DNA of 50,029 nucleotides, from positions 1 through 50,029 of the IMG/VR virus record IMGVR_UViG_3300033067_001279. One strand, 5' to 3'. The notes under the pieces were generated by a model that did not search any database, was not told where the DNA came from, and saw only the letters and a list, made by a program, of their open reading frames with translations. This stretch comes from a virus. Taxonomy: Duplodnaviria; Caudoviricetes. This document shows, in pieces, positions 20,467-44,158 of this stretch. Made by a program: the position numbers and the translations under genes. Each line of letters begins with the position of its first letter. Position 1 is the stretch's first letter.

Positions 20467-21267
20467 TCATGGTCCCCATGCGGCGCAGGTCATACGAGCT
20501 GCGCTGGATGATGATAAGGTGGTAGTCAAAGTTGCAGAAGCACTGGACGAAATTCCGGTGACGAGAGCGCCATTGGCTTGCGCGGTGCCGACCGTCTGAT
20601 TGCCGACGAGGGTCGGCGTGCCGACGTTCGAGGTGAACCCGATGGTGGGCGCGGTCGCCGGCGTATATTCCGCGCCCACGATGACGCCGCCAGATGATGC
20701 CGAGAAGGCGCTGGATGCCAGCGAGGTGGTTGAACCACTAGATGCAAAACCTCCGCCGGTCGGCGTAGAGCTAGACGGGTAAACCGAGTAGACGTAGCAG
20801 ACGAAAGCTGTCCCGGCGCCGCTAAGAGTAACAGACACCGTGCCAGACACAGTTGAAGCGTCCGCCAGATAATATGTAGATTGGCCGCCCGCGCTCCCGG
20901 TCTGCGTCGAACCAGATACGGCGGTGGCAGACGTGCCCCCGATAGTGACGGAAGAAACCGTCCTGGTTGTGGAGTTCAGCCAGCAGAAGCAGGCAACAAG
21001 GACGCGCTTGGCGTCAGTGGTGCCGAAGGTGATCGTGCCGGTGGTGTAGGTCGTGGCACCCGTCGAGGAACCGTAGTTGCCGTTGTAGCTGGCCGCGGGC
21101 GTGCCGGCGGCAGCCTTGCCCGGCAGCATGCCCATGGTGAGCGGCATGGCCAGCAGCACCTTCTTGCTCTCGGCCCGGATGATCGCAGGCTTCGGCACGA
21201 CGAGGGCCGGGGTCTGCGGCACCATGAGCGCAGGGATCACGGCGGCGGCGAGGAGCGACTTCATCAT
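20467..21267 (-). CDS. Tail-fibre-associated Ser/Thr/Gly-rich beta protein
   Basis: Coupled downstream of the tail fibre; beta-strand-rich composition. Confidence 0.65.
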   Translation of the reverse strand: MMKSLLAAAVIPALMVPQTPALVVPKPAIIRAESKKVLLAMPLTMGMLPGKAAAGTPAASYNGNYGSSTGATTYTTGTITFGTTDAKRVLVACFCWLNSTTRTVSSVTIGGTSATAVSGSTQTGSAGGQSTYYLADASTVSGTVSVTLSGAGTAFVCYVYSVYPSSSTPTGGGFASSGSTTSLASSAFSASSGGVIVGAEYTPATAPTIGFTSNVGTPTLVGNQTVGTAQANGALVTGISSSASATLTTTLSSSSAARMTCAAWGP

Positions 21268-23180
21268 GCGATGTCACCAATCAATAGCCAAGTGTCGGTC
21301 GCGCGCTTGTAGAGGGTCGCACCCGAATACTGGCCGGTGAGCTTGAACTTGGAGCTCGAGGACTGCAGCGTGATTCCGGTCGTCACCAGCGTCACTTGGG
21401 CCGAGCCGAGCTGGACGATGTCGATCCTCGTTCCGACCGGGAAGGCGACCGAGGCATTGGTCGGGATCGTCAGGTTGACGCTTGCGCCGGTGACATTGAT
21501 CGAGACCAGCTTTCCGGCGTCGGTCAGGGCCAGCGTATAGGCAGCTGTCTGGGCGTTCTCGGCTTCCGTGGCCACCGTCGCCACGACATTGGCCGTCGTT
21601 GCGATCTGGGTCGTGTTCGTGTTGGCGGCCGCGGTGGGCGCAGCGGGCGTGCCGGTGAAGGTGGGGCTGGCCAGCGGCGCATAGGAGCCAAGGTCGGTCT
21701 GGGTGGCAAGCTGGACGGTGGTGCCGTTGAGGCGGGCGAAGACCGCGGCCGTCGTTGTCCAGAAATCGCCGTTGGCCGGGGCCGTAGGAGCAGCGCCATG
21801 GGGAAGGTTGAAACCCGCACCGCCCGCAGCGGACGCCGCAGTGGTGGCCTTGCCGGTGAAGGTGGGCGAGGCAACAGGAGCGCGGGAGGTGTCGGTCGGG
21901 TGAACGTGGTCCTGCCGGGCAAAGCGCGTCGAGGTGCCAACGGTCGCCGTTCCGTCCATGACGGGAGAAGCACTGCCAGCCTGCGCCAGCACAAAGGCGG
22001 TGGTGGCAAGCTGGGTCGTGTTGGTGTCGACCGCAGCGGTGGGCGCCGCCGGGGTGCCGGTGAAGGTGGGCGAGGCAAGGGGTGCGAGCTGCACCGTCGT
22101 GCCGTTGACGCGCCCGAAGAAGCCACCCGTTGTCGACCAGAAATCGCCATTGACCGGCGATGTCGGAGCAGCACCGTGCGGAACATTCAGACCCGCGCCG
22201 CCCGTGGCCGAGGCAACTGTCGTCACGTTTCCGGTGAATGTCGCGCCGGTGAGGTTGGCGTAGGAGTTGGTGTCGACCGCCCACACGCCGCCGCTGCGCC
22301 GCAGGAGGCCGTTCGTCGTGAGAGCGGCAATGGTGTCGAGGTCGGCATCCCACGCCTGCACGGTCGAGCCGATGGCCGCCGAGGTCAGCAGCGCCGAGAG
22401 CAGCGTGCCGCCGTCCGCGATGAGCTTTCCGGTGGCCCCGCTAAAGATCGCCACGCGGCCGTTGACGGCGCCGGCCGGGCCGACGACATCGCCAGTTCCG
22501 GAACCGGCCGCGCCCTGGAGATTGCCCTGGAGGGTCCAGGTCGTGGTGCCGGTCTTTTTGTAATAATCGCTGTTGCTGGTGTTGATATAGAAATCGTTGA
22601 CTGCCCCCAGGCCGCCGGCCGGAGCGCCGGTTCCGGAGTACCAAAGCGAGCCGCTGGTGCCGTTGTTGCCGGCGATGCCCTGGAGATTGCCTTGCAGCGT
22701 CCAGGTCGAAACGCCGGTTTTCTTGTAGTAGTCGCTGTTGGTCGTGTTGATGTAAAAGTCATTGACCGAGCCGAGGCCGCCAGCCGGGGCGCCCGCTCCA
22801 GAAAGCCAGGTCGCGCCGTTGGCGCCGGCGGTGCCCTGGCCGAGGCCGCCGACGATATGCACCTCCGTGCCGTCATAGCGCATCAGGATGTCGAGGCCGA
22901 TCGTGATGTCACCCGAGGCCATCGCCACGCCGCCGGCTTTCTTGAGCGCCTTGGTGCCCGTCACGCCGGAGATCGTGATGGTCATCGGCCCGGTGTTGCC
23001 GGCCGTGGCGCGCCAGCCATAAAACTGGTCGGTATTCCAGTCGGTCTGGGCCGGGTAGGCGGTGCACGTTATGTCGTTGGTGCCGCCCGTTTGGGTGAGG
23101 GCCACGATGGTGGCCACGTCCCCGGAGACGGGGATCCCGGACACCGCGCCGGTGAGCCTATCGGTGATTGTGCTCGACAT
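21264..23180 (-). CDS. Tail fibre protein
   Basis: T/G/A-rich; PLASPTFTGTPAAPT repeats; duplicated GAPAGGLGxVNDFYINT modules; C-terminal YTLALTDAGKL...IPTNASVAFPVGT...WLLIGDI domain. Confidence 0.85.
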   Translation of the reverse strand: MSSTITDRLTGAVSGIPVSGDVATIVALTQTGGTNDITCTAYPAQTDWNTDQFYGWRATAGNTGPMTITISGVTGTKALKKAGGVAMASGDITIGLDILMRYDGTEVHIVGGLGQGTAGANGATWLSGAGAPAGGLGSVNDFYINTTNSDYYKKTGVSTWTLQGNLQGIAGNNGTSGSLWYSGTGAPAGGLGAVNDFYINTSNSDYYKKTGTTTWTLQGNLQGAAGSGTGDVVGPAGAVNGRVAIFSGATGKLIADGGTLLSALLTSAAIGSTVQAWDADLDTIAALTTNGLLRRSGGVWAVDTNSYANLTGATFTGNVTTVASATGGAGLNVPHGAAPTSPVNGDFWSTTGGFFGRVNGTTVQLAPLASPTFTGTPAAPTAAVDTNTTQLATTAFVLAQAGSASPVMDGTATVGTSTRFARQDHVHPTDTSRAPVASPTFTGKATTAASAAGGAGFNLPHGAAPTAPANGDFWTTTAAVFARLNGTTVQLATQTDLGSYAPLASPTFTGTPAAPTAAANTNTTQIATTANVVATVATEAENAQTAAYTLALTDAGKLVSINVTGASVNLTIPTNASVAFPVGTRIDIVQLGSAQVTLVTTGITLQSSSSKFKLTGQYSGATLYKRATDTWLLIGDIA

Positions 23181-23182: not shown

Positions 23183-26100
23183 TCAGTCCTCCATCCCGGG
23201 AAGCAGATCGGAGAAATCTGCGTCTGCCCCGTCTTGCAATACCCTACTTTTCACCTCGGGCCAAACCTCCTGCACGGCATGCGCGTTATACACTTTGCGC
23301 TTGTGGTAGCGTGCCAGAAGTTCCTCGCCCAGGGCGGGTGACAGTGTGCCGATATCCTGGATCAATCCGTCAGCATCCATTGGCTTTTTCTGCTCCCAGC
23401 CCTTGATCCCGGTGGTGATCAGGGCGTTGCGCGCCTCGACCATCGAGAGCCGGGCGAGGAGCTCCTGGGCGCCAAGCCGCTGGTCGGGCGTCAGGGTGAT
23501 CTTTTCCGGGTCGTCCTTGGGGCTTTCGATTCGGCTGACATCATTGCCGGCGATCTCCTTGCGGAGGGCGGAAATGGCGGCGATCGCATCCTTGGCCCGG
23601 CGCATCGGGTGGAGGCGTTCCACCTTCGCATCAAAATTGCCGGTGAGTAGGGCATAGGCCTTGAGGTTTTCGTTCTTGCTCTCGAGGAAAGTGTTGGCCG
23701 CCGCGGCGCCCTGGCTGTCGAGAATGTCCTTATAGGTGTTGGCAGTCTGGGCCATGGGCCCGGTCTGCTCGGACATCTGATCCCAGAACTGGCGGCTCGA
23801 GACGGCGCCCGAAGTCGCCTGCTTGATGAACCGCCGGCTCAGGGCATTGGTGGCCGTCTCGAGAACGCCGCGCTCCTGGGCGCGATCGACCGAGGCCGAG
23901 GTGATGATCTGCCCCCAGGACGCACCAAATCCCTGAATGGCGTGGTCGATCATGGCCGGGCTCATGTTGGTGGCATAGCCCATCGCCTTGGCGATCTCTG
24001 AGGTCCGGGCGGTGTACTGGCGCCAGGGCTCAAAGCCGGCGATGTCCTGGCCGACGATCGGCTGCCCGAACGAGTCGACGTTGTGGGCGAGCTCATAGCC
24101 CACCTTGAAGATCGGCACTTCGGTGGGCGGCGCGGTCACGTCATAGAGGCCGGAGACAAAGCTCTCGAGGGCGAGCGGGTTGCGCTTGTATACGGCATCG
24201 AATCCGCGCTCGAACAGGTTGGCCACAAAGCCCAGCTCGAACGGCTTGGGAATGGCCACCCAGTTGCCGGGGCTGAGCTTTACCATCCAGTGCGTGGCGC
24301 GCACATAATCCGAGATCTCCTCATATTCCGGATCATCACGATAGAGGGCGGTGAGGCCGAGGCTAAAGACGCCCATGGCGGTGAGCGCCGTCCAGGCCTT
24401 GGCCGACTTGCCAAGGTTGGCGCGGTCCCTGGCCGAGAGCGGCCGGCCGGCGCGGTGGCTCACGTAAGGGGTGATCGCCTTACGAATGGCGCCCTCCGCG
24501 GTGAGCGTGCGCACCGCCTTGTCGAGGCCCTGGACCGAAGCATTGAGGAAGGTCACCAGGCGCCGCGCGGCGTGGGTCTTCGAGCCATGCCGGCCGAAGT
24601 CGATATAGTCGCGGGCCTGGTAGGCTGCCTCGACGGCCGCCTCGAACGGTGTCAGTCCGTCTTTCTTGGCGCGCTCGAAGCTGTTGCGGAACACCGCCAG
24701 GCGGGTGCCGGTTTCGCTGAGCTCGGTGAGCTCGGCAAAGCCGCGGATCGAGGCGAAGCGGCGCACCGCATAGCCGTTCTTGCGCAGCGCATCGAGGTCG
24801 CGCATCACCCGGCCCTTGTCGAGGGCCGCGACATTGGCGCCGCCCATGATGCCGCCGAACGTGTTGTAGATCTGCGAGATCTCGTGCTGCATGATTTCAT
24901 CGCGGAGGCCGCGGGCGCCCGAGACAAAGGGAATGAAATCCATGCCGGTGAGCACCCAGGCCGACACCTGATCGCGGATGTAGTTGGCCAGGATGAACGG
25001 CGGCGCGGTGGTGATCGAGTAGCGCAGCATGCTCGAGGGCAGCGCCAGCACCGAGGTAAAGAGATCCCGGGACTCCTTGTTCATGCCGGTCATTGAGTCG
25101 TAGAGCTGGCGGCCGAAGTCGCCATCCGCCAGGCGCAGGGCTTGCTTTTTGCCATTGCGCCACACGTAGATGATCGGCTCGCCCTTCTCGTTGATCTCGC
25201 CGGCCTTGAAGACGGTGGCCTTGGCGTTGTCCCCGAGGAGATCGTCCACCAGGGTGGTGAGCGCGTCGATATCGCCGGGGTTGATGCCGGCCTCCTTGCC
25301 GGCGGCGCGGAGCACATCGCCCACGTCGACCGAGCTGCCCTTGAGCTGGGTCGAGGGGATCCGCTCCGCGATGGCGCCGCTCCCAGGGCCCGCCATCTTG
25401 GCGAGATCATCGAGGGCCTTGAACACATCGTTGCGCCGCATCAGCGCATTGAAGTGGTAGGCGTCGGTCATCATGCTTTCGATCGGGTTGATGATCGAAC
25501 GTTTGGACCCCTTGAAGGCCTTCACGATCGAGTTGCGCAACGTGGCATTGGGCTCGCGGCCCACCTCGCGATCAAGGTCCGAAAGGTCGCGCATGAAAGG
25601 CACGTAGTCGGGGCGCTGGATCAGGTCGTCGTAAAGCTCCTGGGTGAGGAATCCGCTCTCGTACTTCTTGCGCAGCATGTTGCGTTGCCACTCGTAGACC
25701 ATATCGGCGGCCTCGGTGAACTCCGGGTGTGCCAGCTCGAGCTCGGCAATCGCCGTCTGATAATCGCCCTTGGTGAACTTGCCAGGGGTGTTGGGGATCT
25801 CGCCGGCCAGGAAGCGATCATACTCGCGCACCGCGCGGCGTGAGATCAGGTAGGAGGCGAAGTCAGCCACGCGGCGATCGTCCCAGGAGGTCCAGCTATC
25901 GCCCAGGGCTTTCTCGAGGGCGTCGGACAGGCCAGGGCCTTCCGGCGTCACGCCATGATAGGGGACCACGCCATGCACCAGGTCGATGTGGCCGGCCGAG
26001 TAAGAGTCCTGGAGCAGGCGCGCCAGGCGGTAAGGATCCTGGGCGGAGGTGATGTCGAGGGCCCGACCGGTGCGCTTCTCGTAGATCTTGGCGAGCTCAT

Positions 26101-29100
26101 CCACCGCCTTATTGATCGGGTTCAGCTTGTCGAGCAGCGAGGTGTAGGCCGTCGAGGCATAGGTGGCGATCGTGGCGCGGACGCCGTTTGCCTGGGCTTC
26201 CTTGATGAGCTCGACGGCCGCCGAGTTGCGACGGCTCGAGACGACATCGCCGGCAATCGCCGCCTGCGACGGCGCCGTGACGTGCTGGCGGTAGGCCTCG
26301 GCAATCGCCTGGATGCTGGCGAGCTGCTCGGGGGCCTTGGTCCGGAGCATGTCCTCGAATGCCTTGGTGAACTGCGGCGCGGAGTTGCGGGCATAGGCCG
26401 GCGTGGTCACATAGAAACGGAACCACTCGGCAAAGCCTTCCGAGAGCTGTTGCTTGGGATCCGCACCCGCATAGGCGAGCGGCTCGAGCTCCTTGGCATG
26501 CGCCAGCTTGATGGTGTTCAGCGAGCGGCCCCACTGGGTTTCCATCGAGTGGGCGGTTTCGTGGGTCTGCGTCTCGAAGTCCGACACCTCGCGGAGGCGG
26601 ATCACACCTTGGCCGCGGTCATACTGGCCGGCGATGCGGCCGCCACCCTTGGGGGCCCTGGCAAGTCGGCCCTGGCGGACGGGCGCGCCGGTGAGCTTCT
26701 GGAGCTCGGCGCTGATGTCCTCGAGGCGGGGTGCCAGCTCCGGCGTAGCCTGGCCGGCAACCTGGACCGTGCCGGCCTGGGGCCGGTTGGTCGGCATGGT
26801 GGACTGTTGCGGCCGCCGGGCGAGGGCTATTCCTTCGGTGGGGTTACCCCCGTCTTGGCGAACAGCTCCTTGAACATCTTGTCCGTCGAGCGGTTTTCGA
26901 TCTCCTCCAAATCCAGAAAGCCCTTCGAGGGCGCCGGTGTCGTCGGTGACTTGAGGGGGATCTCCGGGGCGGCCGTTTGCGTCGATTTCGGCATAGCGAT
27001 CTGCAACTCCTTCTTGTCTGAGAACTCGGTAAGTCTCGGCCGGTGAAACGCCAACAGCCTTGACATATTCCGGGTTGATGATCCGCCCGGTCTTGATAAA
27101 TCGCCCGATCATGCGGCGGAACGCATTGTCGTAAGTCACCGCAATATTGATCAGGTCGACCTTGTAGCCGAAGGCCTGGAGGTTCTTGACCAGCTTGCGG
27201 ATCCCATCGGGGTTATGGCCCACCTTCGGGACCACGATGTTCGAGCCATCCGTGAGCATCCGCGCCAAGACGGCGTTCGCCATGTCGGCGCTTTCCTCAT
27301 GGACCGCATTGGCCCCGATGCCGCCATGGAACTCCGGAATTACCTTCTTGGCTTCATCGGGATCGACAATGGCCGCATAGCGATCGGCTGCGAAGCGATC
27401 TGCAAAGGTCGATTTGCCGGCAGCGGGCGGGCCCAGGACAATGGTAGCGCGGCGCTCATGCTTGACCGGGCCCTTGGTGGAGAAGGCGTTTGCCCCTTCA
27501 ACCAACCGATCAATGGCAGGATCGAAGCCATGGACCGGACCATCCGGGAAGTCATATACGCGGGACTGCTTCCACGCATCAGACATGAAGCCTGGTTGTT
27601 CATTCGTCAAGGGGATTGCGTCAAGGCGCCGCACCGCGTCTTGCACAAAGGGGTGCGCGGCGATTTCGTCAATCGGCGCACCATTGGCGAGCATGTCGGG
27701 CAGCCCGGTGCCGATCGCGTCGGTCTTGAACGCAAAGCCCTTTTGATCGGCCTCGGATCCGAACAAGCCGACATCCATGCCCTTTTGCGGCCGCTTGGCG
27801 CGGAGCGGCGCCTCGGCCCGGCGCTCGGCCAGGCTCTTGTTGGAGATCTGCTCCGCCCCGGGAATGACCATCTGCGGCTTGTTGTCGGCGCCCGGCTCGA
27901 GGATCGGGGCCTTTGGCTGGCTCATCAGGGTTTCGCGGCCCTTGTCGGTCAGGAAATAGCGAGTCACGCGATTGCCGGTCGCGGTGTAGCTTTCGCGGCC
28001 CTCGATCCAGCCCATGCGGGTGGCTTGGTTGATCTGGTCTCCAAGGATGTTATTCGGCGCGCCCAACTTGCCGCTCGCCAGTGAAAGGAGACGTTCCATT
28101 TGGGGCGTCATGGCAGGCGCCGCGGGGGCGCCCGGCTCATAAGTCGGACCGTTCACCTCGGCCTGGAACGCCGGATCTTTCTGGAGGGTGCTCGAGATCT
28201 GCTGACTGCGGGTCGCCCCTTCGGCCGGCTTGCCATAGAGCGCCGAACGCAGAATGTTGCCATCGGCCGCCACATAGGGCGGATCTATGCCCTCCTCGGC
28301 CAGGATCTTGAGGCGGCCCTCGATCTTGCTGTCCGCGACGGCGCCAAGGAAATGGATCCGGGTCGGCTTGGCCTCTTTCACGAACGCCCGGAACTCCTCC
28401 GCGCTGATGGCCTTTTCGTTGGAGGGGATCCCCGCGATGAAATCCGTCCCGAGAATGTTGCGCGCCTCGGCATAGGCCTGGGCGAGCGTCTTCTCGCCCT
28501 TCTGGAGCGGTACGATGAGGTTTTCAGCGAACGGGCGGAGATCGTCCGCATGCTGACGGAGGAGCGCGAGGGAAGCGGCCTGGTCGCCAATGATGTCGGG
28601 GGCCACGAAGACCGGCGGCGGATAGCTGTCCTCGGCCTGGTTGGCGTCCATGATGGCCAGGCGCAGCTCGTTGTATTTGTCGAGCACCGCCTGGAAATCC
28701 ATGTCCTTGAGCTGCGGCGGCGCGGCACCCTCGGCCCGGAACATATCGCCCAGGTCCGTGAGATAGCGGCCTTGCTCGCGCATGTTGCGGCGGAACAGGC
28801 CGAAAGCCCCGGAGTCGACGAACACCCGGGCATGCCAGTCGAGGATCCGCTGGGCCAGGCGCGGAATGTTGGCGTCCGAAAGCTCCTGCACGTCGATGCC
28901 AATGCCGCGCGTGTCAATGCCGCCGAAGGTGTGGGCGCCGGCCTCGAAGTCATTCAGCCGCGACATGCCGGAGGCGAAGCGCACGGCGCGCTCCTTGAGC
29001 TGGCGCACCTGGCCGTCGACGCCCTGGGGAACGGTCGGCTTGACGCCGTTGGATCGCACCAGGGTGGCGAGCTCGCTCCGGGATCCGTCCATGTGGCCGG

Positions 29101-32100
29101 TGGCGTTGCCCTGGGCGTCGAGGTGGGTGACCTGGTAGAGGCTCGGATCTCGCAGCGATTGCGTGACGATGATCGTCCGGCCGTCCTCGGTCTTACCCTC
29201 GAATGCGCCGGTGCGCTCGATCGCGCTCTCGATGTCGGCCTGGAAGGCGGCCATTTCCTGCCGGCGCTGGCGGATCTGCTCCTGAAAGGCCTTCATGCGC
29301 TCGGTGGTCGCCGGCGGCGGCATCACGTCGAACAGGCTGGGGCCCTTGTCAACCGGCGGCCGGCGGGCAAAGGCGATGTTGGGCTCGGTCGGATCCCAGG
29401 TGCCGCGGTTGTTGACGCTCTTGATCTGGGTAGGATCGAACGCGACAACCTCGCTGGGAAGGCGATGTGTGTAATTCTTGTTGAACACATCGCCAGCAAA
29501 GATGCCGTCATATCCGAGCTTCCGCACCTCCGGGATTATGTTCTTGCGAAACTCATCCAGAAGCGTGCTGCCATGGAGCCCGCCGTGCGAATCCCAGGCT
29601 GCGGCGTCCTCGCCGCGCACGGCGGTTTCCTCTGCGAACAGATCATTTTGGAGCTCCAAGGCGGTCTTGCCGCCTGTGATCCGCTTCATCACCTCATCGA
29701 CTTGCGGCGCGATGTGGTTTTGATAGAGCTCCTTGGGGGCCATGCCGGGATGTTCTTTTTCGGCAATTGCCTTGAAGTGAGCCTTCAATGCCGTCGCGAA
29801 ATTTTCGACAATCTCATCCGGCTGAGAGGTTTTCCCATGGATCCAAAGAGGATTTTGGATGCTGACGTAGAGCTCCATGGTGTTCGCGGCGGTGCCACCA
29901 CGTTGCAGGGAATAGGCATCAGCAAGGTATCGCTGCGGCGTCAAGTAGAATCCATCGGCTCCGAAAAATCCCTTGTCGAACCGCTTTCCTGCACCCTGCT
30001 TAAACTCGGTGAAGGCAGTCGGGCCGGTGCCGTGATAGATCACCAGCGGGTCGCCGTTCTCGTCCACCAGCTTGGAATGACCGAACCACCGCTTGAAGGC
30101 CGGTGAGTCGGTGGGGCCAGCGTCCGTCAGTCTTGCGGCGATCCCCGTTTCGTCCGGGCGTCCAACTGGGCCAGGGCGACCCCCGTCCGGACCAATTGTC
30201 TTGCTCGCTGTGCGGAGCTCGTCGAGAAAATCTCGGACAACGGCCGGACGGGAGTCTCCGTCTTTAAGCCGCTTGGCGGCAGCGGCGAGGGCGTCGGCAA
30301 TGGGGCCTTTGCGGCGGGCTTGGGCTTGGAGGGTGGCGAGGATCGCGGCATCTTGGGTTGCCCTTTCTGCATTGGTTGCGGTGGCCAGAGTGTTGCCGGC
30401 GCCGGTAAGGCGGGCCTCCTCCTTGACCAGGGTGGCGAAGGCGGCGCGGTCCTTGCGGATGGCGGTCGCCGCGGCGCTCAAGACCTGGGCGCGCTCCTTG
30501 AAAAGGATCTGCGTCACCTCGGCCGAGCCGAACATGTCCTCCATGGTCGATTGCACGGCCGGCGCGTCGAGCGCATCGCGGATCATGCTCTCGGCCTCGA
30601 TGGCATTGTCCGGCTGTTCCTTGGCCAGGAGATCGAGGAGCTGGGCGTGGGTCTTTGGATCCGGCGCCAGGCGGCCCACCTGGGCAGCGTAGCCGGCCGG
30701 AACTTTCTTGTTGATAACCATCCCGAAGGCGTCATCAGACAGGTTGGCGAGGCCCTGGGCATCGCGCACCAGGGCGGAGGTCGGCGGCAGATCAACCGCC
30801 ATATCCGGCCGCGAGCGGAGGATCTTGGCCGCGTCGATGGCGTTGCCGGTGCCTTCCGCGATGTTCTTGGCCGCGGCGATGGCGCGCGCATCCTCTGAGG
30901 TGACGCCATCGGCTTCCCGGAGGACCACGGCGCGGATCTTCGGCTCCTGGCCTTCCTTCTCGAGGCGCGAGGCCAGGCCATGGCGCTGGTGGCCATCGGC
31001 AATATAGAAATCGCCCTTCAGATCCTCCCACACCAGCGTGACGCCGGACTTGATCGGATCCCATTTCTTCACGCCCTTGAGGCGATCGGTAACCCCGGCC
31101 TCGTCGCCACCTTCCTTGAACTGGAAGCGCTTGGCGTCAACCTTGAGATCCGAGGGGTTGAACTGGCGCTCGGTGCGATCGACCGGCAGCGGCGCGGGCG
31201 GGGGCTCGACGGCGGCGGGTGGGGTCTGCTCGGCGCCGGGCAGCGGGGCAACACGTTGCGCGGACTTCTTGGCGATCGCGTCGGCCCGCGCGCGGAGATC
31301 CGCCGCATAGGCCAGTTCCTCGGCTTTGCGGCGCTCGAGATCAGCCTTGATCGTCTCATATTTCGGGCTGTCCTTCGAGACGCCGGGCTCGGTTCCCGTA
31401 GCCTCGGCATTGCGCTGGGCGCGGGTGGCAATATAGTCCGCCAGATCGGCGCGCCCATACATCTCGGCGGCGGCCATACCCTCGACGGTCGATCGGTTTC
31501 CGGCAGCATGGATTGGCGCGACAACCGCATCGCGGATTGCCTGCTCGATCCCGCCCACATTAGAGCGGTTGCCATTGGCGGCCACGGCTGCATCCGCTTC
31601 GGCGCGGAGCTTCTCCTCGAGGGCGGCGAACTGTGTCGGCGCCGTGCCCTGCTGCACCACGAAATCGCCCACAGGGTTGCCGGGCAGCGGAGCGGCGGGG
31701 CCGCGCTCCCTCGAGATCTGCGCGGTGAGATCCTCGGCTTTCCCGCCGGTGATGCCCGGCACGAAACCGCGCTTCGGCTTCACAATGCCGATCGAGGCCA
31801 TGGGGTCGGCCGAGTCCTCGAAGGCCTTCACCTCCGGGCTGTTGATGCCGAATTGATCGACGGCCTGGGCGAGCGCGTCGGCGTGGGTATCGCCCACAAA
31901 GAACTTGCCGCCGATCTGCACGGCCGGCTTGCTCTCGCTGCCCCTGAATTTCGAGGGGTCGATCGAGAGATCCGGCTTGACCGGCTCGACGGGCGGCGTC
32001 TCATTGGTGAGGCCGCCCTGGGTTTCGGTCGGCGCCTGGGGGATCTCGCCGGGCTTGTTGGCGTTGAGGTAGTCGTCGACCTTGGCGATCTGCTCGGGCG

Positions 32101-33031
32101 TCATTTCCCGAATGCCGACCACCTCACCGAACAGCGCCTCTTGGGCGGTGTTGAGGTCGCCCGGGCTATGGGTGGCCAGGAGATATTCAGGAGTTGGCGG
32201 TGCCAGGCCTTCGGGAGCAGGCGGCGGCGGTTCAGCGGCGGGCGGGGCAGCCGCTTCCGGCGGCGGCGTGGGGCCAGGCTGCGGCGGCGGGCCGGCCGGC
32301 GTGCGCTCGGCGTGGCGGGCCTCCTCACGTGCAGCGCGGCCCTCGAGGTAGCCGAACGGCATGCCGAAGCCAAAGCCGGCAGCGGCATCGGTGGCCAGGG
32401 ATCCCCAGTCGACCGAATCACGCAGGCCGGAGCCCCACTCCTCGGCCTGGACGATCGCGTTGATACTGGCATTCATCGCCGCATTCGACACGCTCGAGTC
32501 AAGGAGCCGCGAGAACATCGGGTAGGCCATGCGCCATCCGGCCGTGCCGATCTCGGCCGCCGGGTTGAGCAGCGAGGCCGGATCTGCCAGGGCGCCGGCC
32601 ACCGAGCCCAGGATGGCGGCGGAATAATCGGCCGCCGAGCTCGAGGGTTTCATGGCGTCATATTGCGCTTGACGTTCCTGGCGCCGCGAAATCATCAGAT
32701 CCGCCGTGGCTTTGCCGGCCTCGGAGCCAATGCCCTGGCCGTTCACATAGCCTTGCTTGGCGCTCTGAATATCCTTGAGCTCGTCGACGCCCGGCGTTCC
32801 GAAATCCTGGGCGGCGTTGAAGTGCTGAACAAATCGCTCCTTCCAGGAGGTGTCGGCCTGCTCCATGCGCTGGGCCGGCTTGCGATCGGGCGCCTGGATA
32901 TACTGATCGAACGGGTTGGCCGGGGCCTGCGGCGTCACCTGGACGCCCATTTCCGGCTGATAGGGCGGCGGCTTGATGTCCTCCGCATCCGCGGGAGCCG
33001 GGGCGATCGCTGAGCCGGGCATGGTAACCAT
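23183..33031 (-). CDS. Giant polyvalent internal virion/ejection protein (~3,280 aa)
   Basis: Third internal-virion gene after tail tubular B; ATG 33031 overlaps the upstream TAA, AGGAG RBS. Domains by motif: ParB-like (YIADGHQR, ~30400-31170); ART (YHGT/GFYLT/EVVAFDPTQIKS, ~29375-30110); TGT/DpdA-like (VFVDSGAF/PDIIGD/IHFLG, ~28235-28985); wHTH (~27930-28110); zeta-like kinase (GPPAAGKST, ~26980-27460); HETAH metallopeptidase (~26280-26720); LPD38-like (IPKPFELG, ~23850-24400). Confidence 0.9.
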   Translation of the reverse strand: MVTMPGSAIAPAPADAEDIKPPPYQPEMGVQVTPQAPANPFDQYIQAPDRKPAQRMEQADTSWKERFVQHFNAAQDFGTPGVDELKDIQSAKQGYVNGQGIGSEAGKATADLMISRRQERQAQYDAMKPSSSAADYSAAILGSVAGALADPASLLNPAAEIGTAGWRMAYPMFSRLLDSSVSNAAMNASINAIVQAEEWGSGLRDSVDWGSLATDAAAGFGFGMPFGYLEGRAAREEARHAERTPAGPPPQPGPTPPPEAAAPPAAEPPPPAPEGLAPPTPEYLLATHSPGDLNTAQEALFGEVVGIREMTPEQIAKVDDYLNANKPGEIPQAPTETQGGLTNETPPVEPVKPDLSIDPSKFRGSESKPAVQIGGKFFVGDTHADALAQAVDQFGINSPEVKAFEDSADPMASIGIVKPKRGFVPGITGGKAEDLTAQISRERGPAAPLPGNPVGDFVVQQGTAPTQFAALEEKLRAEADAAVAANGNRSNVGGIEQAIRDAVVAPIHAAGNRSTVEGMAAAEMYGRADLADYIATRAQRNAEATGTEPGVSKDSPKYETIKADLERRKAEELAYAADLRARADAIAKKSAQRVAPLPGAEQTPPAAVEPPPAPLPVDRTERQFNPSDLKVDAKRFQFKEGGDEAGVTDRLKGVKKWDPIKSGVTLVWEDLKGDFYIADGHQRHGLASRLEKEGQEPKIRAVVLREADGVTSEDARAIAAAKNIAEGTGNAIDAAKILRSRPDMAVDLPPTSALVRDAQGLANLSDDAFGMVINKKVPAGYAAQVGRLAPDPKTHAQLLDLLAKEQPDNAIEAESMIRDALDAPAVQSTMEDMFGSAEVTQILFKERAQVLSAAATAIRKDRAAFATLVKEEARLTGAGNTLATATNAERATQDAAILATLQAQARRKGPIADALAAAAKRLKDGDSRPAVVRDFLDELRTASKTIGPDGGRPGPVGRPDETGIAARLTDAGPTDSPAFKRWFGHSKLVDENGDPLVIYHGTGPTAFTEFKQGAGKRFDKGFFGADGFYLTPQRYLADAYSLQRGGTAANTMELYVSIQNPLWIHGKTSQPDEIVENFATALKAHFKAIAEKEHPGMAPKELYQNHIAPQVDEVMKRITGGKTALELQNDLFAEETAVRGEDAAAWDSHGGLHGSTLLDEFRKNIIPEVRKLGYDGIFAGDVFNKNYTHRLPSEVVAFDPTQIKSVNNRGTWDPTEPNIAFARRPPVDKGPSLFDVMPPPATTERMKAFQEQIRQRRQEMAAFQADIESAIERTGAFEGKTEDGRTIIVTQSLRDPSLYQVTHLDAQGNATGHMDGSRSELATLVRSNGVKPTVPQGVDGQVRQLKERAVRFASGMSRLNDFEAGAHTFGGIDTRGIGIDVQELSDANIPRLAQRILDWHARVFVDSGAFGLFRRNMREQGRYLTDLGDMFRAEGAAPPQLKDMDFQAVLDKYNELRLAIMDANQAEDSYPPPVFVAPDIIGDQAASLALLRQHADDLRPFAENLIVPLQKGEKTLAQAYAEARNILGTDFIAGIPSNEKAISAEEFRAFVKEAKPTRIHFLGAVADSKIEGRLKILAEEGIDPPYVAADGNILRSALYGKPAEGATRSQQISSTLQKDPAFQAEVNGPTYEPGAPAAPAMTPQMERLLSLASGKLGAPNNILGDQINQATRMGWIEGRESYTATGNRVTRYFLTDKGRETLMSQPKAPILEPGADNKPQMVIPGAEQISNKSLAERRAEAPLRAKRPQKGMDVGLFGSEADQKGFAFKTDAIGTGLPDMLANGAPIDEIAAHPFVQDAVRRLDAIPLTNEQPGFMSDAWKQSRVYDFPDGPVHGFDPAIDRLVEGANAFSTKGPVKHERRATIVLGPPAAGKSTFADRFAADRYAAIVDPDEAKKVIPEFHGGIGANAVHEESADMANAVLARMLTDGSNIVVPKVGHNPDGIRKLVKNLQAFGYKVDLINIAVTYDNAFRRMIGRFIKTGRIINPEYVKAVGVSPAETYRVLRQEGVADRYAEIDANGRPGDPPQVTDDTGALEGLSGFGGDRKPLDGQDVQGAVRQDGGNPTEGIALARRPQQSTMPTNRPQAGTVQVAGQATPELAPRLEDISAELQKLTGAPVRQGRLARAPKGGGRIAGQYDRGQGVIRLREVSDFETQTHETAHSMETQWGRSLNTIKLAHAKELEPLAYAGADPKQQLSEGFAEWFRFYVTTPAYARNSAPQFTKAFEDMLRTKAPEQLASIQAIAEAYRQHVTAPSQAAIAGDVVSSRRNSAAVELIKEAQANGVRATIATYASTAYTSLLDKLNPINKAVDELAKIYEKRTGRALDITSAQDPYRLARLLQDSYSAGHIDLVHGVVPYHGVTPEGPGLSDALEKALGDSWTSWDDRRVADFASYLISRRAVREYDRFLAGEIPNTPGKFTKGDYQTAIAELELAHPEFTEAADMVYEWQRNMLRKKYESGFLTQELYDDLIQRPDYVPFMRDLSDLDREVGREPNATLRNSIVKAFKGSKRSIINPIESMMTDAYHFNALMRRNDVFKALDDLAKMAGPGSGAIAERIPSTQLKGSSVDVGDVLRAAGKEAGINPGDIDALTTLVDDLLGDNAKATVFKAGEINEKGEPIIYVWRNGKKQALRLADGDFGRQLYDSMTGMNKESRDLFTSVLALPSSMLRYSITTAPPFILANYIRDQVSAWVLTGMDFIPFVSGARGLRDEIMQHEISQIYNTFGGIMGGANVAALDKGRVMRDLDALRKNGYAVRRFASIRGFAELTELSETGTRLAVFRNSFERAKKDGLTPFEAAVEAAYQARDYIDFGRHGSKTHAARRLVTFLNASVQGLDKAVRTLTAEGAIRKAITPYVSHRAGRPLSARDRANLGKSAKAWTALTAMGVFSLGLTALYRDDPEYEEISDYVRATHWMVKLSPGNWVAIPKPFELGFVANLFERGFDAVYKRNPLALESFVSGLYDVTAPPTEVPIFKVGYELAHNVDSFGQPIVGQDIAGFEPWRQYTARTSEIAKAMGYATNMSPAMIDHAIQGFGASWGQIITSASVDRAQERGVLETATNALSRRFIKQATSGAVSSRQFWDQMSEQTGPMAQTANTYKDILDSQGAAAANTFLESKNENLKAYALLTGNFDAKVERLHPMRRAKDAIAAISALRKEIAGNDVSRIESPKDDPEKITLTPDQRLGAQELLARLSMVEARNALITTGIKGWEQKKPMDADGLIQDIGTLSPALGEELLARYHKRKVYNAHAVQEVWPEVKSRVLQDGADADFSDLLPGMED
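26827..26994 (-). CDS. Nested out-of-frame 55-aa gene at the end of the zeta-like kinase domain
   Basis: AAGGAG 12 nt before ATG 26994; MPKSTQTAAPEIPLKSPTTPAPSKGFLDLEEIENRSTDKMFKELFAKTGVTPPKE with G/C-ending codons while the host frame switches to A/T-ending codons. Confidence 0.65.
   Translation of the reverse strand: MPKSTQTAAPEIPLKSPTTPAPSKGFLDLEEIENRSTDKMFKELFAKTGVTPPKE
30127..30351 (-). CDS. Nested out-of-frame 74-aa gene at the end of the ParB-like domain
   Basis: AAAGGG 9 nt before ATG 30351; MPRSSPPSKPKPAAKAP...RPLSEIFSTSSAQRARQLVRTGVALAQLDARTKRGSPQD; host frame uses atypical codons here (AGG, CAA, CTT, AAA, CGA, TTT, AGA). Confidence 0.55.
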   Translation of the reverse strand: MPRSSPPSKPKPAAKAPLPTPSPLPPSGLKTETPVRPLSEIFSTSSAQRARQLVRTGVALAQLDARTKRGSPQD

Positions 33032-35445
33032 TACTGCACTCCTGCGGGGGTCTTGGGGAGCCATTTCTCAGCCTCGCCGGTGCCAAATCGCTGGTCGAAG
33101 GCATCGGCCAGGGAGGGATTGGCGATGAGAGCGCGGACGGAAGCCTCGTCAACGAACGGCCAGCCACCCGGCGGCGGGCGGAGTTTCATCGGCACGGACA
33201 TGGTTCCGCTCCGGATCGGCGGAACGCGGGCAGGCTGGGCCGGGCGCTGGGGCTGGGCAGGCGCGGCGGGGGCGGCCGCGGGGGTAGTAGCGGCCGGGGG
33301 CAACTCGCCGTTCATGGCCTTCTCTGCGGTGCTGGCCTCGACGGCGTGCTCGAGGCCCTGGGTTTCGGCCACGGTCGGCGTGATGCCCTGGGCGGTCTTG
33401 CGGATAATGCCGGCGGTGATGTCTCCAACCTGCTTATCCCGGACCGATTCCGAAATGGCGAAGGCGAGCACCTGTTGCGCATAGGGCCCATAGATCTCGT
33501 CGACGTGGTTGATGGTGTCGCGCACCGCCGTCTCGGTGGCCTGGCGAATGGCCTTGCGGGCGGCCTGGCGCTCCTCGGGGGTCTTGGCCTTCGACATCGC
33601 CATGACCAGGCGGGCATCCGATTCGTCGATGATCTTCTCCACCGGCTTGATGATCTCGCGGGCATCGGTGCGGGTGATCGGCTGCTGGATGCCGTCCGGG
33701 ATCCCCACTTCGGCCTGGGCGGCGAGGCGCGCCTTGATCAAGGCCTGGATGCTGTCCGGCTTGGTCGGGTCATAGGTTTCCTTGGCCTTCTTGACGATGG
33801 GCGAGTCCTCGACCGACTTGGCCGGATCCTTGAGGCGGAGATCCTGGAGCTGGTTGGCGCGCTTTTCGGCCGCGTCATAGATCTCTTGTTGGCTCGAGAA
33901 GTCCGTCGCGCCGGCCGCCGGCTTGAGGGTCTTGAGGTGCTCCTCGATCTGGTCGTTGTTCATCGTCTCCATGGCGGTCACCGCGCCATAGGTGGCCACC
34001 GCGGTCTTGCGCTTCTCGAGCCACTTGGCCGCGTCATCCTCGCCCAGAGTGTTGATGATCGTCTGGGGATCCAGCTTGGTGCCCTGGCCGGTCGCCTTGA
34101 TCTGGGCAATGTCGTCGTCCATGGCGGATTTGACGTTGTAGCGATCGAGCGCTGTGGTTTCGCGCTGCTGTTTCTGGCGCTGGGCGATCTCGCTATCCGC
34201 GTTTGTCTGGAGGGCGAGTCGATCGGTGCCGTCGAGCACCTTGTAATAATCCGGCTGGTTGAGGCTGGCGATCTGGTCGCCGCCGCCAGCGATGATGTCG
34301 GCCTCCTCGTTGCGCCGGCGGGCGTTGATCCCGCCGTTGTCCTTCGAGAGGCCGCGCACCGCTTCCGAGATCTGCGCGATGTCGCCGCTCTTGATGGCAT
34401 TCACCACGCGGCCAGGCAGAGAGCCGTAGTTGTAAGCTACCGAAGTCAGGGCCGCCTTGGCAGCCGGCGGCAGCGAGGCCCAGGGGCCAGGGCCAACGTC
34501 CTGGACAATGCCGGACTGAAATTCACCAATGCGGCGCTGGAGGTCGCGCTCGGCATCGGCGCGCGTCACGGTCATGCCGGGCTTGACCGGGATCACCTGT
34601 CCATCCGCGGTGGTGATGGTGTCGGATCCGAAGCCAACCCGATATTTGTCCTTGTCGAAATAGGCGGTGGTGCGAAAGCCCTCTTGCTTGCGGATCAGGC
34701 CCTCGACGCCGCCCTGTCCACCCTCGAGCCAGGCGGCCGCGGCATTGGGGTCGTTCTGGATGTCCTGATCAATTCTCAGCTTGGCGTATTTCTGGGCCAG
34801 GCCGCGGCGCAGCTCGACGCCCTTGGCCGGGTCAATGACGCCGGTGGCAACCATGTTGTCGATGTTCGCCCGCGCCTGGCCCAGGATCTTGTCGGCGGTC
34901 TTCGGGTCCGTGCCAGGGGCGGCGGCCGCGCTGATCGAGTCGTCGAGGCCATTGATTGCGGTGGTGACGCGGAGATCCTTGTCGATGCCCTGGGCGCGGT
35001 TCTGGATGGTGAGGGCGCCCTGGGTTACATCGTCCTGGGTTTCAGCCTCGAAGCGGGCCCGGAGCGACGGCGAGCGGATCAGCGATGCGGAGGCCTGGCG
35101 GTGCTTCTCGATGTTGCCCTGGAAGGTCTTCCCCCAGTTGGCATAATCGGGGTTGTTCTCGAGCTGGTACTGGTTTTCCTCGGTGAGCCGGCGCTTGTTC
35201 CAATCGGTGCGGGCGCGGGTGAGGTCGAGGGCATCCCCCTGTTCCTTCTGGCGGATGTCGATCTGCCGCTGGTTGTCGATGTTCGCCTGGTTTTCCTGGG
35301 TGATCGTCTCGCCCATCCTGGCCACCGCACCGCCCAGGGCACGGCTGGCCTCGCCCACCATGTCCTGCTGCTGGCGCGGGATGGCCTGGGATTGCGGGAG
35401 GTTCATGCCGAGGCTGTCGGCGGTGGGCATCCTCGGCATGATCAA
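33031..35445 (-). CDS. Internal virion/ejection protein with a GH24 lysozyme domain
   Basis: LIRKQEGFRTTAYFD...VGFGS...VTRADAERDL...ALTSVAYNYG...NARRRNEEA within a helical protein. Confidence 0.85.
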   Translation of the reverse strand: MIMPRMPTADSLGMNLPQSQAIPRQQQDMVGEASRALGGAVARMGETITQENQANIDNQRQIDIRQKEQGDALDLTRARTDWNKRRLTEENQYQLENNPDYANWGKTFQGNIEKHRQASASLIRSPSLRARFEAETQDDVTQGALTIQNRAQGIDKDLRVTTAINGLDDSISAAAAPGTDPKTADKILGQARANIDNMVATGVIDPAKGVELRRGLAQKYAKLRIDQDIQNDPNAAAAWLEGGQGGVEGLIRKQEGFRTTAYFDKDKYRVGFGSDTITTADGQVIPVKPGMTVTRADAERDLQRRIGEFQSGIVQDVGPGPWASLPPAAKAALTSVAYNYGSLPGRVVNAIKSGDIAQISEAVRGLSKDNGGINARRRNEEADIIAGGGDQIASLNQPDYYKVLDGTDRLALQTNADSEIAQRQKQQRETTALDRYNVKSAMDDDIAQIKATGQGTKLDPQTIINTLGEDDAAKWLEKRKTAVATYGAVTAMETMNNDQIEEHLKTLKPAAGATDFSSQQEIYDAAEKRANQLQDLRLKDPAKSVEDSPIVKKAKETYDPTKPDSIQALIKARLAAQAEVGIPDGIQQPITRTDAREIIKPVEKIIDESDARLVMAMSKAKTPEERQAARKAIRQATETAVRDTINHVDEIYGPYAQQVLAFAISESVRDKQVGDITAGIIRKTAQGITPTVAETQGLEHAVEASTAEKAMNGELPPAATTPAAAPAAPAQPQRPAQPARVPPIRSGTMSVPMKLRPPPGGWPFVDEASVRALIANPSLADAFDQRFGTGEAEKWLPKTPAGVQ

Positions 35446-35990: not shown

Positions 35991-36348
35991 AGCTATAGAC
36001 CCTTTCGCCGCCGATGAGTTCATTCGTGGGGGAAAAGCCCAGCCGCTCCAGCCACCGCCCCGCCCCGTTTTCGTGTGTCGACTCTATCGCATACAACTCA
36101 CCCAATTGCGAGACGCCCACCTCCACCAACCTCTGGGCGGTCCGGTGCATGAACACCGGAAATCGCCTCAGCGTCTCGGTGATCTCGAGGCTCAGGAACG
36201 GCCGGCCGTTCACCCCGATGACGATCGCCGCGGCGCCGATCTCCTGGCCCTCGAGCTCGGCCACCACGCCGGCGAAGCGCGGCACGATGTAGCGCGAGAA
36301 TTTCACCATGTCGCGGGCCCGCATGAGGCGGAGCTTAGGCGCGCTCAT
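35851..36348 (-). CDS. GNAT-like virion assembly protein (T7 gp13-like position)
   Basis: AGRWLERLGF motif; follows tail tubular B; C-terminus reads ~46 codons into the next gene. Confidence 0.65.
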   Translation of the reverse strand: MSAPKLRLMRARDMVKFSRYIVPRFAGVVAELEGQEIGAAAIVIGVNGRPFLSLEITETLRRFPVFMHRTAQRLVEVGVSQLGELYAIESTHENGAGRWLERLGFSPTNELIGGERVYSYGTHPSSDRRNRRLHGSERRDDRHGPDGGGRIGLGRRPGDRRHPTG

Positions 36349-39037: not shown

Positions 39038-39663
39038 CAGGCGTACCGATAATAGTGCGAGCTGCGACGGAAGCGGTTACCGTTCCAGCGGCCAGCGGGC
39101 GGCCTTCGGGTGGGCTCACGCATGGCCTCAAAGACCAGGGCCTCCTTGAGGCTGCGATCGGCCTGGTTGATGAGTCCGCCCAGGGCGGACTCCGAGGCGC
39201 CGGTCACCTTAGGGGCGATCGAGGCGGACAGGCGGCGCGAGAAGGCTTCGACAAAGCGCGCCGTCCAGCGCGTCATATCGAGGCCGAATCCGGTCGCTGA
39301 GTTGGAGACATAGCGGACAAAGATCGGGGTTGTGTCGGACAGGAAGACGTTGCCCTCCTCGAGCCAGTTGTCGAGCGGCGGATCCAGGTATTCCGAGGCC
39401 GAGACGAGATAGGTGCGGACCCAATCGGCCGGCTTGTTGAAGACGTAGGACGCCCCGAAGGCGCCGGCGTGCGCCGGGTCGTAGTCGATTTGGACCGTGC
39501 GCATGGCGAACTTCCAAAATCCCGCCTCGAGCATGAATGCGAGATCCTGGTCGTAGAAGGTATCGAGCTGATAGCGCGCCTCGCGCGCCTCGGTGATGAC
39601 GGCGAGCTGAGGCTCGCGGATGTGTGCGAGGGCCAGGTTGTAGAGCTGGAGTTTCGTCACCAT
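39037..39663 (-). CDS. Tail tubular protein A (adaptor)
   Basis: LQLYNLALAHI...WKFAMR...KPADWVR...FVRYVS...FVEAFSRRL. Confidence 0.85.
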   Translation of the reverse strand: MVTKLQLYNLALAHIREPQLAVITEAREARYQLDTFYDQDLAFMLEAGFWKFAMRTVQIDYDPAHAGAFGASYVFNKPADWVRTYLVSASEYLDPPLDNWLEEGNVFLSDTTPIFVRYVSNSATGFGLDMTRWTARFVEAFSRRLSASIAPKVTGASESALGGLINQADRSLKEALVFEAMREPTRRPPAGRWNGNRFRRSSHYYRYA

Positions 39664-43881: not shown

Positions 43882-44158
43882 CGGTTTTCTCCTGGGGTGG
43901 CAATGGACGGTCGATCGCGTTGAGGATGCGCGTTCCGACGAACCGCTTGCCCTCTGCAAAATCCGACGCGCGGGATCCGTCCGGCCCGGGTCGGAAGCTC
44001 ATGTCATAGGTGCACGCGAACTTGGTGAGGATGGTCACCAGGGCGATTTTCTGCTGGGCGGCCGAGGCCACGCCGGCAGCCAGGGCTTTGAAGGCGACAA
44101 CCTCGGCGGTGCCGAGCTCGGGGGCTTCCCAGGGATTGACCGGCGGCTTGTACGTCAC
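43790..44158 (-). CDS. Bbp19-like head protein between portal and scaffold
   Basis: SFRPG...DFAEGKRFVG motif; GTGA coupling to the portal gene. Confidence 0.75.
   Translation of the reverse strand: MTYKPPVNPWEAPELGTAEVVAFKALAAGVASAAQQKIALVTILTKFACTYDMSFRPGPDGSRASDFAEGKRFVGTRILNAIDRPLPPQEKTDGTSPEAPRPDRRNPKPSTRRNKPARPSAE

Follow-up and report, generated by a model that had tools for sequence, protein, structure and literature searches.

The 50,029-nucleotide DNA stretch analysed here (IMG/VR virus record IMGVR_UViG_3300033067_001279, Caudoviricetes; hereafter the window) codes on its minus strand for a giant polyvalent protein of 3293 amino acids (open reading frame (ORF) at positions 23183–33064). 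Comparison with related loci makes it very probable that a second, separately initiated gene of about 55 codons (26827–26994, minus strand) is hidden in the +1 frame of this ORF. It is overprinted on the last part of the segment coding a zeta-like P-loop kinase module and on the linker behind it. Structural modelling suggests that the nested peptide likely binds the kinase, and it is tentatively regarded as a kinase inhibitor. In the following, "host" designates the giant ORF, its homologs and their reading frame, as opposed to the nested +1 frame.

Coding Signals of the Nested Frame in the Window

The nested frame starts at an ATG (26994–26992), which is formed by the host codon TAT (Tyr2024) and the G that follows, and ends after 55 codons at a TAG (26829–26827). 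A Shine-Dalgarno-like AAGGAG (27007–27012, minus strand, read from 27012 to 27007) is found upstream, separated from the ATG by a long spacer of 12 nt. It is written with rare A/T-ending codons of the host frame, (CA)A GAA GGA G(TT). The presence of a +1-frame ORF of 55 amino acids behind its own AAGGAG inside the giant ORF, put forward in the original prediction, was thus confirmed at these positions.

The whole giant gene has a G+C fraction at third codon positions (GC3) of 0.81. Over the host segment LSGFGGDRKPLDGQDVQGAVRQ (codons CTT to CAA) 18 of 22 codons end in A/T, exactly as initially counted, and this linker-like stretch has the lowest GC3 of the gene. In the nested frame, 46 of 56 codons end in G/C. 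When all 22-codon windows of the gene are considered, those with eight or fewer G/C-ending codons form two clusters only, at about 27070–27049 and 26938–26905. Both fall within the 79 codons over which the +1 frame is open, from an ATG at 27066 to the TAG at 26829–26827. The codon anomaly is unique in the gene, and no second GC3 dip of comparable size, such as another nested gene might leave, was found anywhere in the giant ORF. The carboxyl-terminal half of the nested protein (residues 25–55, GFLDLEEIENRSTDKMFKELFAKTGVTPPKE; 26830–26922, minus strand), which is its predicted kinase-binding part, is read in the host frame as a Gly/Asp/Gln-rich linker with a GC3 of 0.30.

Note that the open +1 frame of the window is by itself no evidence for a gene, because 46% of synonymous redraws of the host codons yield a +1 frame of at least 55 codons in this GC-rich genome. 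Since openness is at chance level, the evidence for the nested gene rests on the codon-usage anomaly and on the comparative data.

Conservation of the +1 Frame and of Its Start Signals

Related loci were collected by scanning with the kinase segment and with its alignment. They comprise 84 loci of viral contigs (8 of them repeat fetches of the same contigs), 2 genome loci, including L085 at 82% identity, and 16 metagenome loci, including L087 at 78% and L088/L089 at 61–65% identity. All were anchored on the host Tyr (residue 2024) of the conserved motif ADxY[AG]xID. Viral-contig and genome loci that reach this Tyr amount, with the window, to 81. A complete +1 frame of at least 50 codons downstream of the anchor is present in 70 of them, 2 are cut by the end of the locus and 9 do not have it. 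The 70 loci give 43 peptides below 80% identity, from genomes whose GC content ranges from 0.34 to 0.68. Among the nine, L006/L007/L071/L072 have nothing in its place, and L050/L051 and L074/L075/L082 have a +1 ORF that starts 6 codons later. The +1 frame is also open (56–71 codons) in 14 of the 16 metagenome loci, the others being L102, which is without it, and L098, which falls short of the anchor. Stops in the +1 frame of close homologs, initially named as the observation that would speak against the gene, are absent from L085, L087 and L088/L089.

The conservation of the open frame is sharply delimited. In 46 lineage representatives, which include 3 without nested ORF, the density of +1 stops is 0.2–1.0 per 10 codons upstream of the anchor, 0.00–0.07 from codon 0 to +50, and 0.89 at +60 to +70, while stops in the +2 frame stay at 0.46–0.57 per 10 codons over the same zone. 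Synonymous shuffling gives p values of 0.003–0.02 in A/T-rich genomes (GC 0.34–0.45) and of 0.1–0.76 in G+C-rich ones (0.46 for the window, 0.49 for L085). The Fisher-combined p is 2.6e-11 over 40 lineages, 12 of which are individually below 0.05. The +1 frame of the homologs is open beyond what host protein sequence and codon usage lead to expect.

The start signals follow the same trend. An ATG is found at anchor position −2 (host GAT followed by G), at position 0 (TAT followed by G) or at both in 67 of the 70 loci. The host Asp that precedes a G-initial codon at −2 is encoded by GAT in 29 of 29 lineages, against 17.1 expected from the usage of each ORF, and variants with Asn or His at this position retain AAT-G and CAT-G. 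Among the lineages that have no ATG at −2, 8 of 10, including the window and L085, read TAT-G at the anchor; taken overall, the anchor Tyr shows no enrichment of TAT (19/29 versus 17.0 expected). In 22 of 43 lineages, the 17 nt upstream pair with the anti-Shine-Dalgarno sequence well enough to be among the best 5% of all positions along that host ORF. The host codons bearing the signal, GAA GGA GTN GCN GAT, end in A/T even in the G+C-rich genome of the window. Start codon and ribosome-binding site are conserved, and the original prediction's question of whether they are kept, with the +1 ORF, behind homologous kinase domains is answered positively by these counts (ORF in 70/81 loci, ATG in 67/70, Shine-Dalgarno pairing in 22/43).

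The peptide itself is highly divergent. A tblastn search of the 79-amino-acid +1 translation against 8 loci gave no match because pairwise similarity of the peptides is too low; it emerges from profiles and from comparison with the close relatives L085, L087 and L088/L089 only. No match was obtained by blastn of window positions 26500–27500 against the phage GenBank collection. A profile of 42 peptides matches 28 proteins of 44–98 amino acids at E 1e-3 in a set of 1.84 billion representatives, 6 of them at E ≤1e-10, and most align from about their residue 1. In a collection of 5.8 billion proteins only 3 relatives were found at E 1e-3. The 28 matches imply that gene callers do recognize the gene in places where it is not concealed. 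The profile is also matched by L100 and L097, which did not contribute to it.

A few loci depart from this pattern. The +1 ORFs of L050/L051, L074/L075/L082, L091 and L099 (52–71 codons, at or just after the anchor) have no match to the peptide profile at E ≤10 and could be diverged partners, unrelated replacements or chance occurrences. In the viral set, a +1 ORF behind the kinase is completely missing from one lineage only, L006/L007 (the same as L071/L072). The kinase of this lineage reads HPQS where the 42 ORF-bearing sequences have H.ES (invariant Glu, module residue E151), and its kinase ORF stops 33 codons past the anchor.

Selection on the Two Frames

Selection on the nested frame is indicated by the reduction of synonymous change in the host frame. 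In 10 sequence pairs of moderate divergence, host third positions differ at a rate of 0.367 in the kinase segment and of 0.357 in the 28 codons that precede the nested start. The rate is 0.196 in the first half of the nested gene and 0.171 in the second half, and amounts to 0.306 past the nested stop. The second half is distinct both from the upstream region (p = 3e-13) and from the downstream region (p = 1e-5), and the share of differences that fall on host third positions drops from 0.72 to 0.33. The same profile is found when the window is compared with L085 alone: third positions differ at 49/120 codons in the kinase, 15/28 before the start, 8/27 in the first half, 2/30 in the second half and 27/55 after the stop (second half versus flanks, 2/30 against 91/203, p = 3e-5). 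Reduced host synonymous change is confined to the overlap.

Codon usage gives a concordant picture. The host GC3 dips in the nested second half in 14 of 15 lineages with a GC content of at least 0.55, and the nested GC3 stays at 0.62–0.82; because the dip recurs in this manner, the signal identified in the window is general. The exception is L040, whose host GC3 in the second half is 0.58 versus 0.49 in the kinase and 0.47 downstream. Between the window and L088, which belongs to its own subfamily, identity over the second half is 12/32 in the host frame and 16/32 in the nested frame; over the kinase domain the corresponding values are 108/150 in the host frame and 66/150 in the other frame. 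A comparison of identity by codon position over all 43 lineages was equivocal (0.43/0.45/0.38 versus 0.45/0.42/0.41). It was replaced by the close-pair analysis, since each alignment favours its own frame.

The 79-codon version of the gene, starting at the ATG at 27066, was rejected. The window and L085 differ at 15 of 28 host third positions before 26994, and the +1 peptide is unconserved there. The 55-codon version is taken as the gene because synonymous suppression starts at 26994 and not at 27066.

The region just upstream of the nested ATG (26995–27070, 25 codons) has a host GC3 of only 0.36. In 15 of 15 G+C-rich homologs the host GC3 before the ATG is lower than in the kinase domain, yet third positions vary freely (15/28 between window and L085). 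Here selection seems to favour a weakly folded initiation region rich in A/T and purines, and not a coding function. RNA structure as the source of the constraint was discarded: the RNA of 26827–27030 folds worse than its shuffled versions (z = +1.62; 188 of 200 shuffles fold at least as well). This weak folding argues against RNA structure and fits an accessible initiation region.

In L087 (region L087:1501–2271) the last ~15 nested residues and the matching host stretch are wholly different from those of the window, while the flanks resemble each other, which points to a local replacement or to compensated frameshifts inside the overlap.

Lineages in which the Host Frame Ends Early

Three lineages (L055/L056, L054 and L073) separate the two frames naturally. 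Their kinase ORF ends at a TGA 27–29 codons past the anchor, and the small ORF runs 27–44 codons further. It then abuts the start of the next gene, overlaps it by 1–8 nt, or ends 10 nt short of it. In this host-free stretch, differences are most numerous at nested third positions: at nested codon positions 1/2/3 they number 12/10/22 between L055 and L005, and 13/9/21 between L055 and L010. These lineages, together with the synonymous suppression and the GC3 dips, bear out the initial proposal that selection over the second half of the overlap acts on the nested frame.

The host frame also has a conserved motif in this region, RLRRGG / GG.[VIL]R. In its longer form, [DE][ILV]RLRRGG, it is found just past the kinase, written with the rare codons CGA CTA CGA (e.g., in L010, L025, L029, L031 and L037), and bears a resemblance to the ubiquitin carboxyl terminus, LRLRGG. 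The motif is the +0 reading of nested FDYD.AE (nested TTC GAC TAC GAC; host CGA CTA CGA). FDYD or YDYD is kept in L055 and L073 after the host frame has ended and, as it survives the host stop, the nested frame drives conservation here. A protease or ubiquitin-like cleavage site as main driver of the RLRRGG conservation was rejected for the same reason. The host motif may have a second role as a processing site.

The kinase and the small ORF are found as a pair in host ORFs that end from 27 to more than 500 codons past the anchor, including stand-alone proteins of 279–437 amino acids. Whatever the length of the host ORF, the nested ORF overlaps the 3′ end of the kinase module, so that it is encoded beside the kinase and co-inherited with it. 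Contigs X7 and X8, from two viral-metagenome runs, are identical to the window over 26300–26827 and then diverge from it over the only 31 and 121 letters, respectively, that lie beyond this point in the comparison. The breakpoint at 26827 is the last base of the nested stop codon, and the differing letters leave the host frame open. It looks like a mosaic junction at the end of a cassette formed by the kinase and the nested gene. The recurrence of the pair across host ORF lengths and this junction agree with the expectation that kinase and partner move as one unit. The arrangement probably originated from an ordinary operon in which the kinase gene was followed by a small partner gene with an overlap of ~30 codons, as found in L055, L054 and L073. 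Read-through fusions would later have extended the kinase frame across the partner gene, which would explain the poor host codon usage and the linker-like host sequence over the nested gene.

The Kinase Module

The kinase module (host residues 1774–2045; 26930–27745, minus strand), as used for the structure and complex models, has 272 amino acids, including an amino-terminal extension of ~95 residues that is conserved in stand-alone homologs. Its Walker A motif GPPAAGKS spans module residues 105–112 (27410–27433, minus strand). The codon of Asp D130 (host residue 1903; 27356–27358, minus strand) specifies the second D of the invariant sequence VDPDEAKK. An alignment of 42 kinase sequences (A3) has 17 invariant columns, among them G105, G110, K111, S112, D128 and D130. 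In the profile alignment to zeta chain 1gvn_B (E 3e-9), K111 corresponds to zeta Lys46 (K46), D130 to Asp67 (D67), N169–G176 to N112–G119 and R215 to R158, these module residues being invariant in the 42 sequences. Asp67 is presumably the catalytic residue of zeta, and the other aligned zeta residues are likewise assumed to have catalytic roles.

The AlphaFold model of the module alone has a predicted local distance difference test (pLDDT) value of 93.7. Its best Foldseek matches are zeta (3q8x, 1gvn) and PezT (2p5t), with template modelling (TM) scores of 0.55–0.60; AvrRxo1-ORF1 (4z8q_A) is matched at E 1e-6. The module belongs to the zeta family: its P-loop kinase fold has zeta and PezT as nearest relatives, and both the Walker A Lys and the counterpart of Asp67 are in place.

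The Nested Peptide and Its Predicted Complex with the Kinase

The amino-terminal half of the peptide is rich in Ser, Thr, Pro and Lys and is largely dictated by the conserved end of the kinase. The carboxyl-terminal half is acidic and aromatic, and predicted to be helical. Three models of the kinase module with the peptide scored 0.89, 0.89 and 0.88, and the best of three controls, in which the kinase was swapped for an unrelated protein, reached 0.02. The score mark used is attained by 58 of 80 solved complexes and by 2 of 110 mismatched pairs, counts that are only rough for models built on custom alignments. At least 92% of contacts are shared between runs, and the peptide has a pLDDT of at least 65.

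The predicted interface comprises peptide residues 25–34, 36–41, 43–45, 48, 50–53 and 55, and is confined to the half of the peptide (25–55) over which the host frame reads as a linker. On the kinase side the predicted contacts are residue 129, between the invariant D128 and D130; H149/E150 and one face of helix 149–166; loop 174–178 (zeta 117–121); helix 179–191; and the lid helix 225–231. By residue number, these contacts fall at 129, 149–165, 174–192 and 224–230. These models make binding of the peptide to the kinase likely. The original prediction of a built-in antitoxin stands for its part on a separately initiated, selected +1 gene that forms a cassette with the kinase; for its part on binding, the support is a computed complex (0.89 versus 0.02).

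Genomic Context of the Giant ORF

The window has a G+C content of 64%, and the giant ORF is located in a T7-like structural module transcribed from the minus strand. This module codes for the large terminase (46083–47669), a portal-type protein (44155–45837), two tail tubular proteins (39037–39663 and 36335–39037), an internal protein of 804 amino acids with a lysozyme-type domain (33031–35445), and the tail fibre (21264–23180). The giant ORF is flanked by the two latter genes, and the lysozyme-domain ORF overlaps its first 34 nt (33031–33064, presumed start). An antisense ORF of 363 codons (25955–27046, plus strand) pairs exactly codon for codon with the giant ORF and is closed by the complement of a host TCA codon; open antisense frames of this kind are usual in G+C-rich genes, and it seems to be one of them.

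Pfam domains matched in the giant ORF are ART-PolyVal (residues 1001–1219), Zeta_toxin (1872–2025, 3.7e-14) and LPD38 (2911–3059). Several unrelated effector domains are thus joined in one polypeptide amid virion genes. This combination places the giant ORF among the phage polyvalent proteins as defined by Iyer, Burroughs, Anand, de Souza and Aravind (2017, PMC5512222), who propose that such proteins are co-injected with the DNA, mention a zeta-toxin-like kinase among their domains and class LPD38 as phage-only.

Function of the Nested Gene

According to the inhibitor reading, the nested gene would be translated from its own Shine-Dalgarno sequence and ATG, both composed of selected host codons. 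The carboxyl-terminal half of the product would be the functional part. It may clamp the cleft formed by the loop of the catalytic Asp, helix 149–166, loop 174–178, helix 179–191 and the lid helix 225–231, and hold the kinase in an inactive state during the late synthesis of the giant protein. Being non-covalently bound, the peptide would be lost at packaging or ejection, and the kinase freed in the next host. This loss is envisaged because the giant protein is encoded where T7-like phages encode ejected internal virion proteins. Polyvalent or internal virion proteins with a zeta kinase could, as a conjecture held with some reserve, hide a whole, so far unannotated family of overprinted inhibitors of ~60 amino acids that silence the kinase in the producer cell and are stripped off as the protein threads out of the capsid.

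A number of observations weigh against this reading or its components. At the level of the gene, the spacer between AAGGAG and ATG is 12 nt in the window versus 6 nt in most homologs, and the open +1 frame of the window is, as mentioned above, what chance would often provide. L006/L007 are without the ORF, the +1 ORFs of L050, L074, L091 and L099 are outside the profile and L102 has none at the anchor. Even in L087, the last 15 nested residues are not the same. The peptide family has diverged strongly, with a mean column identity of 25% and zero invariant columns. Its profile has no Pfam or PHROG family match and, when compared with all chains of the Protein Data Bank (PDB), gave nothing below E 0.25 and no antitoxin among the matches. 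At the level of function, the toxicity of the kinase is assumed from its membership in a family whose kinases phosphorylate UDP-GlcNAc (NAD in the case of AvrRxo1) and are toxic to bacteria, classical antitoxin genes usually precede the toxin gene, and the Walker A loop is absent from the list of predicted contacts. The complex model was built on custom alignments, and the kinase fold has solved inhibitor complexes (epsilon/zeta, PezAT, AvrRxo1:Arc1), so that memory of the predictor may contribute to the score of 0.89; despite this possible memory, the peptide sequence is unlike epsilon, PezA and Arc1. As neither sequence nor fold homology relates the peptide to these proteins, it is not filed as a member of the epsilon, PezA or Arc1 type, and the proposal is limited to a similar mode of action.

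A less probable, though serious, alternative is that the product of a real nested gene binds the kinase as a structural subunit, an activator, a folding chaperone or a packaging adaptor, in the manner of a type III secretion chaperone. All gene-level evidence and the predicted complex apply equally to such a partner, and the position of the Walker A loop outside the predicted contacts suits it. The phage module is, moreover, shorter than zeta at its carboxyl terminus (272 residues, including the 95-residue extension, versus 287), so that it could be completed by a separate helix. For Arc1 of AvrRxo1, roles as chaperone and as antitoxin are both discussed (PMC4938570; bioRxiv 10.1101/2023.12.02.569727). 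Against a purely assisting role, the module folds confidently without the peptide (pLDDT 93.7), and the predicted contacts are on conserved active-site elements, namely beside the D67 equivalent, on the loop equivalent to 117–121 and on the lid helix, which is the place of an occluder. It is rather unlikely that the nested gene is real but unrelated to the kinase, coding for a small regulatory, anti-defence or morphogenetic protein of the late operon. These phages commonly have small late genes whose role is unknown (45-residue neighbours are an example), the peptide matches no known family, and a complex score is a model confidence and not a measurement. This sits poorly, however, with the strict linkage to the kinase module across host ORFs ending 27 to more than 500 codons past the anchor, and with the fall of the score from 0.89 to 0.02 when an unrelated protein replaces the kinase.

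That there is no separate gene at all is very improbable. The +1 frame would then be a by-product of a Gly/Asp/Arg-rich linker with few +1 stops, an RNA element or programmed frameshift, or the relic of an older frame. The unremarkable openness of the +1 frame in GC-rich loci (p = 0.46 in the window, 0.49 in L085) and the conserved host motif RLRRGG / GG.[VIL]R are in line with a by-product. However, the frame is also open in genomes of GC 0.34–0.45, where p is 0.003–0.02, GAT is used in 29/29 lineages, and synonymous suppression begins at the ATG and ends at the stop. The ORF outlasts the host stop in three lineages with the periodicity of the nested frame, and host RLRR is the +0 reading of nested FDYD, which persists after that stop. 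The RNA folds no better than shuffles (z = +1.62; 188/200), and no search was aimed at frameshift sites.

Relation to Known Systems

Phage genes nested in a +1 frame, such as Rz1, zeta kinases with protein inhibitors, and the in-frame cis antitoxin of EzeT are already known. In Rz/Rz1 of phage lambda a small gene with its own start is wholly embedded in the +1 frame of a larger one, and the two products cooperate. These are two spanin subunits engaged in lysis, whereas the overlap described here joins a kinase and a putative inhibitor in a polyvalent virion protein.

The inhibitor of EzeT is the in-frame amino-terminal domain of the same polypeptide. EzeT of Escherichia coli, described in PMC4826407 as a zeta toxin with a cis-acting antitoxin domain, resembles the phage arrangement in that a single ORF carries inhibitor and zeta kinase, which move as one unit. 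It differs in that its inhibitor is in frame, while the phage partner is a separate polypeptide from another frame.

The epsilon/zeta and PezA/PezT systems provide the best sequence and fold matches of the kinase, and the kinase has kept the Walker A Lys as well as the residue equivalent to Asp67. Epsilon, a bundle of three helices with ~90 amino acids, is a small helical inhibitor seated on the catalytic cleft of zeta; for the phage peptide such a position is predicted only. In contrast to the phage gene, the epsilon and PezA genes are upstream of the toxin gene and do not overlap it, and the phage peptide has no similarity to their products. Zeta serves plasmid stability as a toxin, and the phage kinase forms a single module within a virion polyprotein.

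The closest functional precedent is AvrRxo1-ORF1/Arc1 (AvrRxo1-ORF2) of Xanthomonas, which also associates a delivered kinase of zeta fold with a small partner gene downstream. The phage peptide is presumably half the size of Arc1, and the two are without sequence similarity. The arc1 gene is separate and non-overlapping in a bacterial effector locus, whereas the phage partner is overprinted in the kinase-bearing ORF; AvrRxo1 is delivered by type III secretion and the phage protein, as proposed, by ejection. In PMC4938570, AvrRxo1 is presented as a zeta-like effector with the antitoxin gene arc1 downstream.

The host ORF is itself a member of the polyvalent proteins of Iyer et al. (2017), combining ART-PolyVal, a zeta-like kinase and LPD38. 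The main text of PMC5512222 does not use the word "overlapping", and where it treats the zeta kinase, in one passage, it names neither an antitoxin nor a partner, although the supplementary files might bear on this point. As judged by titles and the beginnings of abstracts, the literature searched does not describe a polyvalent protein whose kinase-coding ORF is overprinted with an inhibitor-like partner.

Biological Significance

If the inhibitor reading is true, this would be the first toxin–immunity pair whose immunity gene is overprinted on the toxin-bearing ORF, and weapon and safety catch would be inherited as one inseparable stretch of DNA. A peptide acting as inhibitor would also explain how a phage avoids harming its own producer cell when it synthesizes an ejected, toxin-like enzyme in quantity at a late stage of infection, a question that the notion of injected polyvalent proteins raises. 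The kinase module and the 55-residue peptide constitute a clean two-component system in which these proposals can be tested. Small out-of-frame genes are missed by annotation, and this ORF is found in at least 43 distinct phage lineages from varied metagenomes. Its organization would show how domain or read-through fusions can build giant polyvalent proteins across existing small genes, and suggests that similar overprinted partners may lie behind other toxin domains of injected proteins.

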